Below, in pieces: positions 21,966-27,172 of a stretch of DNA of 64,000 nucleotides. Numbering within the stretch: the first letter of the stretch is position 1; each line of letters opens with the position of its first letter. The stretch covers positions 648,933 to 712,932 of the forward strand of contig OZ245054.1 of the NCBI GenBank assembly GCA_965224715.1, in the 5' to 3' direction. Origin of the DNA: Spirochaetota bacterium (GTDB taxonomy: Bacteria; Spirochaetota; UBA12135; COTS27; CAXSBA01). The notes beneath the pieces are model-generated. The model was not told the origin of the DNA and searched no databases. It was given only the letters and a program-made list of their open reading frames with translations. A program made the translations under genes and the position numbers.

Positions 21966-23198
21966 ATGAAGAAAAAATTGATTTTAGCATATTCTGGAGG
22001 TCTTGACACCTCCATTATCTGTAAGTGGCTTGACCTTAAGGGTTATCAGGTTATCTGTATGGTTGCGGATATTGGGCAGCCAGAAAATTTTTCCGAACTC
22101 AAGAAAAAAGCCATCGCCTCGGGAGCTAAGAAAATAGTTGTGAAAGATTTACGCAAGGAATTCATTGTCGATTATGTTTATCCTTCCATCGCTTTTCATG
22201 CTCTTTATGAGGGACGTTATTTGCTAGGAACTTCCTTAGCTAGACCTCTCATCGCTAAGGCTATGGTAGATGTTGCCCGTGTTGAAAAAGCATCCAGTTT
22301 TGCCCATGGGGCGACCGGAAAAGGAAATGACCAAGTCCGATTTGAATTATCTCTTCAAGCTCTTTCTCCTGAATCCAAGATCATCGCCCCCTGGAAGATT
22401 AGTGAATTCTATTCCCTTATCAAGGGTCGCAAAGAAGCCATGGATTTTGCTCGAAAACATAATATTCCTATCAAGGCGACTACCAAAACTCCCTGGTCTA
22501 GTGATGCTAATCTACTGCATATCAGTTTTGAAGCTGGAATTTTAGAGAATCCAGCTTGTAAACCTCCTGAAAAAATGTTTGAGTATTCGGTTTCTCCGGA
22601 AAAGGCTCCGAACCGAATAACCCCCCTTACTATTGACTTTGTCAAAGGGATGGCTGTTGCCGTGAATGGGAAACGGGTGGGACCGGTAGCTCTTATGGAA
22701 AAACTCAATCAAGTTGGTGGGAAAAATGGAATTGGTCGGATCGACATCGTCGAAAGCCGTTTTGTGGGGATGAAGAGCCGAGGGGTCTATGAAACTCCAG
22801 GAGGAAGTATCCTACATTTGGCCCATCGTGATTTGGAAACCCTTACCCTTTCACGATCGTTGATCCAACTCAAAAACACCCTTATGCCTCACTTCGCATC
22901 CTTGGTGTATAACGGTTTTTGGTTTGGTCATGAAATGCGTTGTCTTTTGGCCTTGCTTAATGAAACCCAAAAGCCAATCAGTGGTCGAGTTTATCTGGAA
23001 CTTTACAAGGGCAATGTGACCGTAATAGGAAGGGAATCAAGGAATTCCCTTTATGATGATAAGGTAGCTTCAATGGAAGATGATGCCGGGGCCTATCATC
23101 CTGAAGATGCTGTTGGATTTATTCGCCTCAATGCCCTCCCTTTGATTATGGAGGCAAAACGTGATAACCGAATGAATAAAAATGGGAAAAAGAGATAA
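21966..23198 (+). CDS. argG: argininosuccinate synthase
   Basis: 410 aa. AYSGGLDTS, GATGKGNDQVRFE and ESRFVGMKSRGVYETPGG signatures. Confidence 0.95.
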   Translation: MKKKLILAYSGGLDTSIICKWLDLKGYQVICMVADIGQPENFSELKKKAIASGAKKIVVKDLRKEFIVDYVYPSIAFHALYEGRYLLGTSLARPLIAKAMVDVARVEKASSFAHGATGKGNDQVRFELSLQALSPESKIIAPWKISEFYSLIKGRKEAMDFARKHNIPIKATTKTPWSSDANLLHISFEAGILENPACKPPEKMFEYSVSPEKAPNRITPLTIDFVKGMAVAVNGKRVGPVALMEKLNQVGGKNGIGRIDIVESRFVGMKSRGVYETPGGSILHLAHRDLETLTLSRSLIQLKNTLMPHFASLVYNGFWFGHEMRCLLALLNETQKPISGRVYLELYKGNVTVIGRESRNSLYDDKVASMEDDAGAYHPEDAVGFIRLNALPLIMEAKRDNRMNKNGKKR

Positions 23199-23330
23199 AT
23201 TTTTCAACCTTTAATAAACTTTATAATAAGTTGTAAGGAGGTTATAATAAAGAGTTCAATACTTCTTCGATGTCAAAGCGGTAGGGAGACTGGGGGTTTA
23301 GAGTGAGAAGGCGGTGAAGAATTTTCTCTG
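23035..23330 (+). repeat. direct repeat copy 1 (argG 3' end + intergenic + relic 3' end of the 574-aa gene)
   Basis: Aligns base-for-base with 26875..27172. By my count there are 7 substitutions and one 2-nt indel. The first ~207 nt differ at only 2 positions. Confidence 0.9.
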
Positions 23331-23345
23331 TCTACGCAAAGATTA

Positions 23346-24466
23346 ATGACATATCCTCTACTCGATTACAATGGCGGAGTGTTTGCTGTAGTAGAAGCTT
23401 GTAATAAAAGAAATAGCGAACAATATACCAATGATGATTTCCAACTTTTATCTATTTTTTGTCAACAAGCAGAAAAAACGATTAGACATGCACTACATAC
23501 TCATACATTAAAACAGAATATACGTGTTTTATTCGATAAAATAACAGAATTACAAACACCACCATTAATTTTTGATAGCAAAGAGATAAAGAATCAAGTT
23601 GATATCATGTCATGTACAAATTGGCACGATCAGATATCACCAATTCTCATTAATGGTGATCCTGGTACGGGAAGGAGTTTTCTTAAAGCACATTCATAAA
23701 AATAATCACAGAAAAACAAAACCTATAGTTGAAATTGACAGTATTGATCTTGTAAAGAGATTAGCCAGTGTGAATAAAGTTGAGATAAAATTAAGGGGAA
23801 TTAATAAAAATTATAAGATCGGAGTAAAGAAAGATTACGAAGGTCTTTTTGAAAAAGCAAGAGGTAGTACAGTAGTATTGGATGAGATATGGGCATTGCC
23901 TCAAAAAGTTCAACAAGATATTGTTAGCTTACTACAGCATAAATTGTTTAGTAAAGTAGATAGTGACAGTATGCAAGTGTTGGATGTCCGAGTTATATGT
24001 ACTAGTACCAAGGATATAAATATATTGGTACAAAAAGGCGAATTTTCGGAAGAATTATATTTTTTTAATTAACTCTTTATCGATGAGGCTTACCCCGATC
24101 AATAGTAGGCTAGAAGATCTTTCTGTACTTGCACAATATTATATAAATTACTATCATAAAACTATCGAAAAAGTCGATCTCAAAGTATATACTATATTAA
24201 AACGTTATGTATGGGAATATAATGTGCATTCTTTAATTCACATTGTCAAATATTTGGTATTGAATTGTGAAGAGGATATATTGACAAGTCAATATGTTGG
24301 ATCTTGTATGTTTATGCTTATGGAAGGGAGACAAAAAAAAAGTACTTCTGATTTATTAGGTGATATAGTGACGGAAAGTGTTACTTCTCTGAAAGATGCA
24401 ATCAATACATTTAAATCTCAGTATACCTATAAAAAATACAATACCTCTCTCTTCACAGATGTATGA
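23346..24466 (+). pseudogene. sigma-54 enhancer-binding-protein-like regulator (GAF end, AAA+, HTH region), N-terminally truncated and twice frameshifted
   Basis: Three ORFs in three frames read through as one protein. They give the GAF C-terminus (FAVVEACNKRN..FQLLSIFCQQAEKTIRHA), Walker A (INGDPGTGRS), Walker B (VVLDEI), VDVRVICTS and EELYFF.LN...L.PINSRLEDL. The breaks sit at T4 (23678-23681) and T7 (24060-24066). No GAFTGA loop is recognisable. Confidence 0.7.
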
Positions 24467-26685: not shown

Positions 26686-26874
26686 AATTATATTCTCAAT
26701 TTTTGATTAAAATTCTCCTATCATAGCACACTTTAATACAAAATAGAAGAAAAAATATGTTTTTTTGACACTAAATAGAAGATAGGTCGTTACGTGTATT
26801 TATCGATACATATTACTTTGTTATTGGTTAGACTTTTTTTAACATCAATAACTTTTTGATTGGAAGACCCTTTA

Positions 26875-27038
26875 AATCAAGGAATTCCCTTTATGATGAT
26901 AAGGTAGCTTCAATGGAAGATGATGCCGGGGTCTATCATCCTGAAGATGCTGTTGGATTTATTCGCCTCAATGCCCTCCTTTTGATTATGGAGGCAAAAC
27001 GTGATAACCGAATGAATAAAAATGGGAAAAAGAGATAA
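26875..27038 (+). pseudogene. relic 3' fragment of argG (last ~54 codons)
   Basis: Tracked ORF 26856..27038 ends ...[53 protein letters not shown]. This matches the ArgG C-terminus except A->V and P->L. It has no N-terminal 350 aa. Confidence 0.85.
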
Positions 27039-27172
27039 ATTTTTCAACCTTTAATAAACTTTATAATAAGTTGTAAGGAGGGCTTATAGTAAAGAGTTCA
27101 ATGCTTCTTCGATGTCAAAGCGGTAGGGAGACTGGGGGTTTAGAGTGAGAAGGCGGTAAAGGATTTTTTCTG
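26875..27172 (+). repeat. direct repeat copy 2 (relic argG 3' end + intergenic + functional 3' end of the 574-aa gene)
   Basis: See copy 1. The offset between copies is 3840 nt. Confidence 0.9.

Follow-up and report, generated by a model that had tools for sequence, protein, structure and literature searches.

DNA transposons encode a transposase, end in terminal inverted repeats, and leave short target duplications of 2-14 bp. Direct repeats that rebuild the 3′ ends of genes are typical of integrative elements, including e14 and phage 21 in icd and the islands found in tRNA genes. Elements that bring a replacement 3′ end integrate by means of a site-specific recombinase at a short core site, and the surrogate end that they supply is usually diverged.

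A further class, termed insertion with long target duplication, has been described by Nobusato, Uchiyama, Ohashi & Kobayashi (Gene 2000) and by Furuta, Abe & Kobayashi (NAR 2010; PMC2853133). Its members have no mobility genes and lie between direct repeats of 46-423 bp, whose sequence is present in single copy at the empty site. In many cases the repeats cover a start or stop codon, which allows the target gene to survive the event. The criteria of Furuta 2010 are a target duplication of >30 bp and an insert of <20 kb, and site-specific insertions are discussed as a class in the same paper (PMC2853133). These screens were built around restriction-modification systems and suggested that the DNA breakage caused by such systems might drive the event. 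The published examples mainly carry restriction-modification cargo and often come from naturally competent species. However, the term has also been applied to 'other DNAs' (PMC3457768), and therefore restriction-modification cargo is best viewed as a property of the screen and not of the class.

The locus described here is a new instance of this known kind of event, not a new type of element or system. We make this assignment because its repeats match a single-copy empty site, because mobility genes are absent, and because its sizes fall within the published criteria: the insert is 3,544 bp long (<20 kb), and the repeats of 296 and 298 bp lie within the range of 46-423 bp. As in the published cases, both repeats align to the empty site, there is no transposase or integrase, the repeats cover the target gene end (here the ends of two convergent genes), and their presence permits later deletion or amplification. 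Unlike those cases, the cargo consists of a broken regulator gene and an orphan lipoprotein gene, with no restriction-modification genes. The ties of the published class to such cargo, and often to competent species, count against the assignment. The present host is uncultured and AT-rich and has an unlinked 23S gene, as in Leptospira.

A gene junction present twice

Within the window (the entire 64-kb stretch of spirochaete DNA that was analyzed), positions 23035-23330 (296 nt) and 26875-27172 (298 nt) form a pair of direct repeats, for which no strand is assigned. A repeat search and a pairwise alignment both reproduced the offset of 3840 nt and the seven substitutions reported in an earlier reading made from the sequence alone (hereafter the sequence-only reading). 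What had been taken for one 2-nt indel is instead two independent 1-nt indels in the spacer, one in each copy, so the offset changes from 3840 to 3842 along the alignment. With the seven substitutions, the two copies are 97.6% identical. This similarity is far beyond chance. In a screen of the whole window for dispersed repeats of at least 40 nt, the pair was the only hit, and the only other repeat was one 78-nt tandem array inside an ORF. The sequence is thus present twice in 64 kb and is not multicopy within the window.

Each copy comprises the last 164 nt of argG, a spacer, and the last 89 nt of a minus-strand gene for a 574-aa protein, in agreement with the content originally proposed. Intact argG (positions 21966-23198, plus strand) encodes a 410-aa argininosuccinate synthase with Pfam domains PF00764 and PF20979, and ends with 164 nt that fall within the left copy. 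The 574-aa gene (27084-28808, minus strand) has no assigned function and is likewise intact, with its last 89 nt in the right copy. As had been recognized, each copy completes one gene and holds a dead stub of the other. The left copy joins the live argG tail through a 43-nt spacer to a stub of the 574-aa gene (23242-23330, minus strand; the last 29 codons plus stop), and the right copy joins a stub of argG (26875-27038, plus strand; the last 54 codons plus stop) through a 45-nt spacer to the live tail of the 574-aa gene.

Empty sites in related genomes and the history of the two copies

Two related metagenome contigs (L001 and L002) are collinear with the window at 91-94% DNA identity and carry argG orthologues. 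In both, argG and the 574-aa gene lie tail to tail with one copy of the junction, and the insert is absent. Similarity between the window and these contigs ends exactly at position 23330 and restarts at 26875 (or 26877), and the two pieces of alignment overlap by 293-295 nt in the relatives. The comparison of syntenic argG loci suggested by the sequence-only reading thereby yielded a simple empty site twice, which bears out its view that the native argG/574-aa-gene junction had received a duplicative insertion. Moreover, the two copies in the window share nine lineage-specific states that distinguish them from both relatives. Because both carry the same nine states, the duplicated patch is the resident target of this genome and was not imported. 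To judge from these alignments, the capture took place on the branch leading to this genome, once it had separated from the two relatives sampled.

Wider synteny offered no further empty or filled sites, because the 574-aa protein had no match in the 185,579 species genomes scanned and the best ArgG matches in those genomes are distant (44-60% identical), with no 574-aa gene, TauE or DctM beside argG. The two related metagenome bins are SRR14371676 and SRR14371711, and the sample accessions of the related contigs are not mentioned in the literature that was searched.

With the two empty-site relatives as outgroups, most differences between the copies can be polarized. The ancestral spacer was 44 nt long; the left copy lost one C after position 23241, and the right copy gained one G at 27080. 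The stub of the 574-aa gene in the left copy has acquired three substitutions (A>V, Y>H and one synonymous), and the argG stub in the right copy has acquired two, both nonsynonymous (A>V and P>L). The live 574-aa gene carries a single derived substitution, which is synonymous, the live argG tail carries none, and the polarity of the seventh substitution is ambiguous. The dead stubs therefore account for five substitutions, four of them nonsynonymous, versus one synonymous and one ambiguous change in the live parts. The differences fall where decay is expected, although the counts are small (five versus one or two) and the argG tail is under no strong constraint. An earlier impression that the substitutions cluster in the stub of the left copy holds for three of the seven; two others are in the argG stub of the right copy, one is in the live 574-aa gene, and the last is the ambiguous one. 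The accompanying proposal that the event is real and not very recent is upheld, and its age is moderate.

The same pattern bears on whether the arrangement was created by an assembler that threaded together two strain variants, or the chromosome and a small molecule. The structure is read from an assembled public contig, and the close relatives are known only from metagenomes, which gives this concern some footing. However, in each copy the live half is conserved and the dead half is mutated, whereas one clean and one mutated unit would be expected from threading. Furthermore, each joint is a unique sequence, the contig extends over 2.11 Mb, and the pattern fits a known biological class. We therefore regard an artefact as highly unlikely.

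Contents of the insert

The 3,544 bp between the repeats can be divided into three parts: a regulator fragment, a terminator and a lipoprotein gene. The sequence-only reading had described the cargo as a truncated regulator and an orphan lipoprotein gene, and domain searches, homologue alignment and database searches agree with this description.

The first part (23331-24432, plus strand) is an internal fragment of a gene for a GAF/AAA+ regulator of the enhancer-binding type. It is now a pseudogene, as recognized by Pfam searches, reconstruction of the reading frame, alignment and tblastx. The GAF, Sigma54_activat and AAA_lid_14 domains are spread over three ORF pieces, which are separated by frameshifts at approximately 23673-23677 (in the Walker A region) and in a run of seven T residues at 24060-24066. 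Three full-length homologues (P0007-P0009; 525-558 aa) are 49-51% identical to the fragment. Measured against these, the fragment is short of approximately 130-145 residues at its N-terminal end, where the left joint cuts the gene, and of an HTH of about 40 residues at its C-terminal end. Homologues of the regulator are normally located at the cmk-rpsA locus. The GAFTGA loop is part of the sigma-54 interaction domain of AAA+ proteins; the corresponding position reads NYKIGV, NYKIGI, DYKLSI or DYKINV in this regulator family, including its full-length members. With respect to classification as a sigma-54 enhancer-binding protein, the AAA+ domain and its lid are recognized, but the N-terminus, the HTH and an intact frame are absent.

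Similarity to the regulator family breaks off abruptly at a terminator hairpin (24436-24483, minus strand) with a perfect 20-bp stem followed by a T run, which serves the lipoprotein gene. That gene (24493-26685, minus strand) is intact and encodes 730 aa (725 aa in the public annotation), with a signal peptide and a lipobox-like ...ILYSC sequence. Its upstream region (26686-26874, minus strand) is 189 nt long and reaches the right joint. No family in Pfam, NCBIfam or PADLOC recognizes the protein, and the lone PHROGs match (phrog_5420, of unknown function) falls on a glycine-rich hydrophobic stretch at residues 525-618. There is no solved structural relative, and the AlphaFold model has a pLDDT of 34.5. 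A HMMER scan of 1.84 billion representatives returned the protein itself and one remote match (P0018) whose genomic context is uninformative, and a profile of the region common to the two proteins retrieved nothing. The 2.2-kb lipoprotein ORF has remained intact while the adjoining 1.1-kb regulator fragment has two frameshifts. The lipoprotein gene is probably the selected payload of the insert, although selection is something that we infer.

Joints, donor and mobility genes

Regulator homology begins at the third or fourth base of the insert, such that the left joint cuts within the GAF domain. Because this position is internal to a gene whose homologues encode 525-558 aa, the left joint is an illegitimate breakpoint and not the end of an element. 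With the insert and the target as the sequences compared, no microhomology was detected at the left joint. At the right joint, the last 13 nt of the insert (26862-26874, GGAAGACCCTTTA) match positions 26881-26893, located 19 nt further into the repeat, at 11 of 13 positions. Among all 13-mers of the window, only 0.17% match to this degree, and it is possible that this short near-copy represents templated filler.

The insert has no close relative in any database searched. Metagenome and viral contigs scanned with the lipoprotein gave no match, a scan of metagenomes with the regulator alignment gave only a relative with 25% identity, and neither gene was found in the assemblies of the two relatives. 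In GC content and codon usage, the insert shows no anomaly. Also, the Mfd protein of this genome is 47% identical to that encoded on a contig carrying a regulator homologue (L015). Given that this value is close to the 49-51% observed for the regulator, and given the unremarkable composition, the insert might stem from the past gene content of the lineage itself. We infer, as the likelier source, a foreign and similarly AT-rich bacterium.

Integrase, transposase, phage, plasmid and defence genes are absent from the insert and from approximately 10 kb on each side, according to Pfam, PHROGs and PADLOC searches and the annotated neighbours, and no inverted repeat pairs the ends of the insert. 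These scans of domains, phage families, defence genes and inverted repeats confirm an earlier statement that integrase, transposase and inverted ends are lacking. From this it had been concluded that the mechanism is not that of a standard mobile element. The lack of mobility genes stands, but the pattern belongs to an already described class. With no transposase, no terminal inverted repeats and a duplication of 296 bp, we rejected a transposon, insertion sequence or composite transposon. An integron cassette and a prophage or ICE remnant were also considered and rejected, as was a laboratory single-crossover construct, since neither a backbone nor a marker is present and the repeats are 2.4% diverged.

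A more elaborate possibility is a decayed integrase island or prophage whose attachment site covered both 3′ ends, which carried replacement ends, and which later lost its recombinase and most of its DNA by deletion. As with elements that carry a replacement 3′ end, the target genes are intact with a dead 3′-end duplicate at the far side of the insert, and the insert shows signs of internal loss. Unlike such elements, the insert and its flanks encode no recombinase or phage protein, and substitutions private to the host lineage are present in both copies. A 296-bp repeat with 97.6% identity and these substitutions does not resemble an element-borne surrogate end, and it is sequence from the middle of a regulator gene that abuts the left repeat. 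We consider this origin improbable.

How the insert may have arrived

The explanation we prefer, with a probability of roughly 0.55, is an insertion with long target duplication in which two illegitimate joins were made in place during repair or replication. A fragment of at least 3.5 kb would have been captured where argG and the 574-aa gene meet tail to tail. Both of its ends would have been joined illegitimately, without the aid of a recombinase, to chromosomal points that are 296 bp apart and in overlapping order. Perhaps the ends were joined to two sister or extra copies of the chromosome during break repair. Alternatively, a replication template switch may have led out of the chromosome and re-entered it 296 bp behind where it had left. 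By either route, the 296-bp interval would come to lie on both sides of the insert. Both stop codons fall within this interval, and so both genes kept complete 3′ ends and the product was viable. FoSTeS/MMBIR and synthesis-dependent end joining similarly yield a duplicated interval that flanks the insert, intragenic breakpoints and a near-copy at one joint. These processes have been characterized mainly in eukaryotes, and the mechanism suggested here would be related to them by analogy only.

After capture, the regulator fragment would have gained its two frameshifts and the two stubs their four amino-acid changes. The 3′ end of the regulator gene would have been lost, perhaps in a deletion within the insert that shortened it as well, and the lipoprotein gene, with its own upstream region and terminator, would have stayed intact. 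The repeats are likely passive today, but they still contain a 99-bp perfect block, so that the unit could be deleted or amplified by RecA-type recombination. The sequence-only reading had expected such recombination to excise the cargo and restore an intact junction. Removal of the cargo is indeed conceivable, but a fully wild-type junction would result only from a crossover in the central zone at approximately 23141-23246, which contains the 99-bp block. A crossover elsewhere would move a stub mutation into a live gene.

The joins need not have been made in place, and in-place joining and joining through a pre-formed circle look alike in sequence. The sequence-only reading named either Campbell-type integration or another duplicative insertion. 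The duplicative insertion stands, and the end product is formally identical to that of a single homologous crossover by a circle composed of the insert and a copy of approximately 296 bp of the argG/574-aa-gene junction, perhaps with other genes lost since. Such a crossover would yield exactly this structure. Also, the derived changes reside in the inner half of each copy, which fits a central crossover with an episomal patch that had already decayed, and the abrupt end of regulator homology at the terminator could be the scar of a backbone deletion. As in the integration of plasmids and suicide vectors, a homology segment is directly duplicated on both sides, and homologous recombination can reverse the process.

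However, there is no replicon or marker here and no sign of a circular form. The insert carries no replication, mobilization or partition gene, phage-family and defence libraries gave no match, and the protein and contig collections searched with the lipoprotein as marker contained no second copy or free form. The nine shared states indicate that the patch is the host lineage's own, illegitimately joined to the cargo. A circle must therefore have first acquired this junction through the same two illegitimate joints, and so the Campbell model adds a step and removes none. We judge it to be unlikely, if still credible.

A bolder variant holds that the 3.84-kb unit, made up of the insert and one repeat, is or was until recently an integrative episome that needs no recombinase of its own, a small circle with a captured copy of a harmless chromosomal junction that enters and leaves the chromosome, or amplifies, solely by the homologous recombination of its host. 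This is a long shot. If true, the episome would exemplify, with a payload other than restriction-modification genes, the 'virus-like life cycle' envisioned for units flanked by long direct repeats, which to our knowledge has been proposed and never demonstrated.

A pathway of duplication followed by replacement has been proposed for rRNA operons (PMC3457768). Applied to this locus, a larger tandem duplication around the junction would have arisen first, and its inner part would have been replaced by unrelated DNA through recombination or deletion. The repeat ends could then be secondary, and 296 bp would be only the minimum size of the original duplication. However, the DNA between the copies is not neighbouring chromosome, and nothing in the insert is found among the neighbours of the junction in the two relatives. 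Illegitimate joints would still be required for the foreign DNA, and so this route, which needs more steps, is very improbable.

Implications

The insertion belongs to a kind that is rare in bacteria but has been described before. The locus is an unusually clean natural case of gene gain without mobile-element machinery. It is clean by virtue of two independent empty sites, polarized substitutions that order the events, an intragenic joint, a possible filler, and a decaying passenger next to a preserved payload. That payload, a surface-type protein of 730 aa with essentially no relatives, can be flagged as a recent and probably selected gain. The finding also extends insertion with long target duplication to cargo other than restriction-modification systems, in a poorly known and apparently isolated bacterial lineage, and this makes it less likely that such events require the cargo to break DNA with a restriction enzyme of its own.

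A duplicated gene junction and its insert

Segments 23035-23330 and 26875-27172 are direct copies of one another, as the sequence-only reading had proposed. The repeat search recovered them as two matches, 23035-23241 with 26875-27081 (207 nt, 99% identity) and 23242-23330 with 27084-27172 (89 nt, 94% identity), which together form a single repeat with an indel between its parts. Pairwise alignment of the left and right copies gives 7 substitutions and abrupt edges on both sides. Each copy carries the last 164 nt of argG (21966-23198; Pfam PF00764 and PF20979), the spacer, and the final 89 nt of the 574-aa ORF, which is on the minus strand (27084-28808). 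No other dispersed repeats of at least 40 nt were found in a screen of the whole 64-kb window, and chance is not an issue for this pair. Elsewhere, a 1053-aa ORF (56013-59174, plus strand) includes at least four tandem copies of a 78-nt (26-codon) unit at 58248-58621, with 76-97% identity.

The 574-aa protein has no detectable homologues beyond the small clade formed by the window and its relatives. It shows 88-91% amino acid identity to those relatives, versus 97-98% for DctM (19358-21094, plus strand), and thus evolves much faster than its neighbors.

Comparison with related loci

Relatives were located by exact-sequence lookup, in which proteins of two Logan assemblies fall into the same 90% clusters as ArgG and the 574-aa protein. 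The corresponding contigs are L001 (SRR14371676_2370, 43.9 kb) and L002 (SRR14371711_12194, 41.3 kb). Both share with the window the gene order aroA, aroK, aroC, biotin ligase, binding protein, DctM, TauE, argG, 574-aa gene, and pyruvyl transferase. On each contig, argG and the 574-aa gene are tail-to-tail neighbors with 43-44 nt spacing and no gene between them, which is the empty site expected from the sequence-only reading. In blastn, the window aligns to L001 over 13250-23330 at 93.5%, breaks, and resumes over 26875-28930; the alignment to L002 similarly breaks at 23330 and 26877. The flanking alignment pieces overlap by 293-295 nt on these contigs, and the insert (23331-26874) has no match in either locus. 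Because the relatives are collinear with the window and have a single junction, no insert, and overlapping alignment pieces, the comparison establishes an insertion with target duplication.

Other differences and affinities were also observed. L001 has a 922-aa MmeI-like type IIG restriction-modification (RM) gene (4409-7177) between a DUF1801 gene and rpsL, whereas the matching window site (31370-31989) is only about 620 nt long, is roughly 21% GC, and holds a 105-nt relic (31504-31608, 74% identity), neighbored by a tRNA-Asn gene (32168-32242). The RM gene has therefore been lost or has decayed in the window lineage, at a site that lies ~4.5 kb away from the insertion. The 23S rRNA gene (8527-11427, plus strand) is complete and stands alone, with no adjacent 16S or 5S gene; such unlinked rRNA genes are also seen in Leptospira. 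Among species-representative genomes, the closest ArgG homologues (55-60% identical) are from Leptospiraceae MAGs and MAGs labelled Planctomycetota, and the organism therefore belongs to a poorly sampled lineage.

Polarity and age of the event

Over 10 kb of left flank, identity is 93.8% between the window and L001, 91.3% between the window and L002, and 92.6% between L001 and L002, with 370, 239, and 489 unique changes in the window, L001, and L002, respectively. With both sampled relatives empty, the simplest history is a gain on the window's own branch.

We polarized the repeat differences by using L001 and L002 as outgroups. At 9 sites, both window copies share one state that differs from both relatives, and the duplicated patch therefore derives from this lineage itself, with the copying later than these 9 changes. 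Since the duplication, the left copy has undergone 3 substitutions and the loss of one C, all in or adjoining the dead 574-aa-gene stub. The right copy has 2 new substitutions in the dead argG stub, 1 extra G in the spacer, and 1 substitution in the live 574-aa gene; the polarity of the remaining substitution of the 7 is ambiguous. At the protein level, the substitutions in the argG stub give A>V and P>L; of the three in the 574-aa-gene stub, two give A>V and Y>H and the third is synonymous. In the live copies, only one synonymous Leu change and the ambiguous synonymous Ile site are seen, with no change in the live argG tail. This is the pattern predicted for relaxed selection on real stubs, though the counts are small and the argG tail is not strongly constrained among more distant homologues. 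The same mosaic structure, in which each copy combines a clean live half with a mutated dead half, argues against an artefact in which the assembler threaded two molecules together, an explanation that we rank lower. From 9 shared versus ~3.5 later changes per copy, we infer that the event came late on the window-specific branch, within roughly its last quarter to third.

Content of the insert

The left part of the insert (23331-24432) is a regulator fragment. It is split into three overlapping ORF pieces that encode the last part of a GAF domain together with a Sigma54_activat AAA+ domain and an AAA lid. The pieces total 378 aa when joined across two frameshifts, one near 23673-23677, within the Walker A region, and the other in a T7 run at 24060-24066. 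Among 5.8 billion proteins, the only close homologues are three Logan proteins of 525-558 aa with 49-51% identity (L015 10001-11578, L016 1861-3483, and L017 2574-4250); the next match is at 32%, and the family is thus very rare. In all three contigs the regulator gene lies just downstream of rpsA and is followed by a TPR protein gene, and cmk is upstream of rpsA in L015. All family members, including the window fragment, lack the GAFTGA loop that sigma-54 activators should have and show an NYKIGV-like sequence in its place, and the sigma-54 dependence of the family is therefore doubtful.

Next to this fragment, and convergent with it, is a minus-strand gene (24493-26685) for a 730-aa lipoprotein, which bears a signal peptide at its N-terminus and a lipobox-like sequence (...ILYSC). 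Its 189-nt upstream region (26686-26874) reaches the right joint, and a perfect 20-bp-stem hairpin followed by a T run (24436-24483) serves as its terminator. The protein belongs to no family in Pfam, NCBIfam, or PADLOC and matches only itself among 5.8 billion proteins. P0018 was the sole remote relative (E = 1e-7, residues 344-635) in a full HMMER scan against 1.84 billion representatives. The C-terminal third (residues about 525-620) has glycine-rich hydrophobic helices (...AIAALGVNLGATVVSHITGTVIGMFGAKQGPVASLMIGEGVSAVVEG...); this region matches phrog_5420, is also common to P0018, and may be a membrane-inserting segment. Because the 2.2-kb ORF is intact, versus two frameshifts in the adjacent 1.1-kb regulator fragment, we infer that the lipoprotein gene has probably been kept by selection with the regulator fragment as a passenger.

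The insert is unremarkable in GC content and codon usage. It contains no recombinase, transposase, phage, plasmid, or defence genes, and no inverted repeat pairs its two ends; a decayed integrase-type island is ranked lower.

Joints and mechanism

The left joint (23330/23331) lies within the regulator coding sequence and is therefore an illegitimate breakpoint. Alignment with the homologues places the start of the window regulator ~130-145 residues into the protein, exactly at this joint, and tblastx homology begins at insert base 3-4. At the other end of the fragment, the C-terminal HTH (~40 residues) is missing, and homology ends near 24432, where the terminator hairpin starts. This abrupt boundary may be a third illegitimate joint or the scar of a later internal deletion, in which case the original insert was larger.

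At the right joint, the insert ends in a 13-nt stretch, GGAAGACCCTTTA (26862-26874), that agrees at 11 of 13 positions with GGAATTCCCTTTA (26881-26893), which lies inside the repeat 19 nt farther on. By a post-hoc test, only 0.17% of all 13-mers in the window have so good a match within the repeat's first 60 nt. An imperfect 11-nt inverted repeat (26856-26866/26870-26880) also straddles this joint. Polymerase-dependent illegitimate joining typically leaves such near-copies of neighboring sequence, and the one seen here is only a hint of that process.

Every model considered requires two illegitimate joints, and the models differ in where these are made. We favor formation in place, which agrees with the self-derived patch and calls for no additional intermediate. 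By one route, a captured fragment would have been joined to two copies of the chromosome at positions separated by 296 bp; by another, replication would have switched onto the fragment and then back 296 bp behind its departure point. The sequence-only reading instead proposed Campbell-type integration, in which a circle bearing a homology patch enters by a single crossover, or another duplicative insertion. Its duplicative insertion is borne out by the empty sites, and the Campbell product would be the same as the observed structure. However, the circle must already have captured the lineage's own argG/574-aa gene junction, and no sign of either replicon functions or a free form was seen. We consider the Campbell mechanism a possible but less likely origin than formation in place. 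Tandem duplication followed by replacement of the inner part is ranked below both.

Whatever their origin, the repeats are at present substrates for homologous recombination, with a longest perfect shared block of 99 bp (23141-23239). The ancestral junction would be regenerated by a crossover near the middle of the repeat; one farther out would move a stub mutation into argG or the 574-aa gene.

Relation to a known class of insertions

The window case matches an already described class, 'insertion with long target duplication', which was reportedly first recognized by comparing Helicobacter pylori genomes (Nobusato et al., Gene 2000). In a prokaryote-wide survey (Furuta et al., NAR 2010, PMC2853133), the direct repeats measure 46-423 bp and match one single-copy sequence at an empty site, inserts are <20 kb, and mobility genes are absent; the window case has the structural features of this class. 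DNA breakage by RM cargo was suggested as a possible driver, together with a hypothetical life cycle in which such units would insert, amplify, and be released (PMC2853133). Unlike the published RM cargo, the cargo here is non-RM, and the ends of two convergent genes are duplicated simultaneously. Specialists will find the case unsurprising; it is a tidy, well-polarized example that is of use for studies of illegitimate recombination and gene gain.
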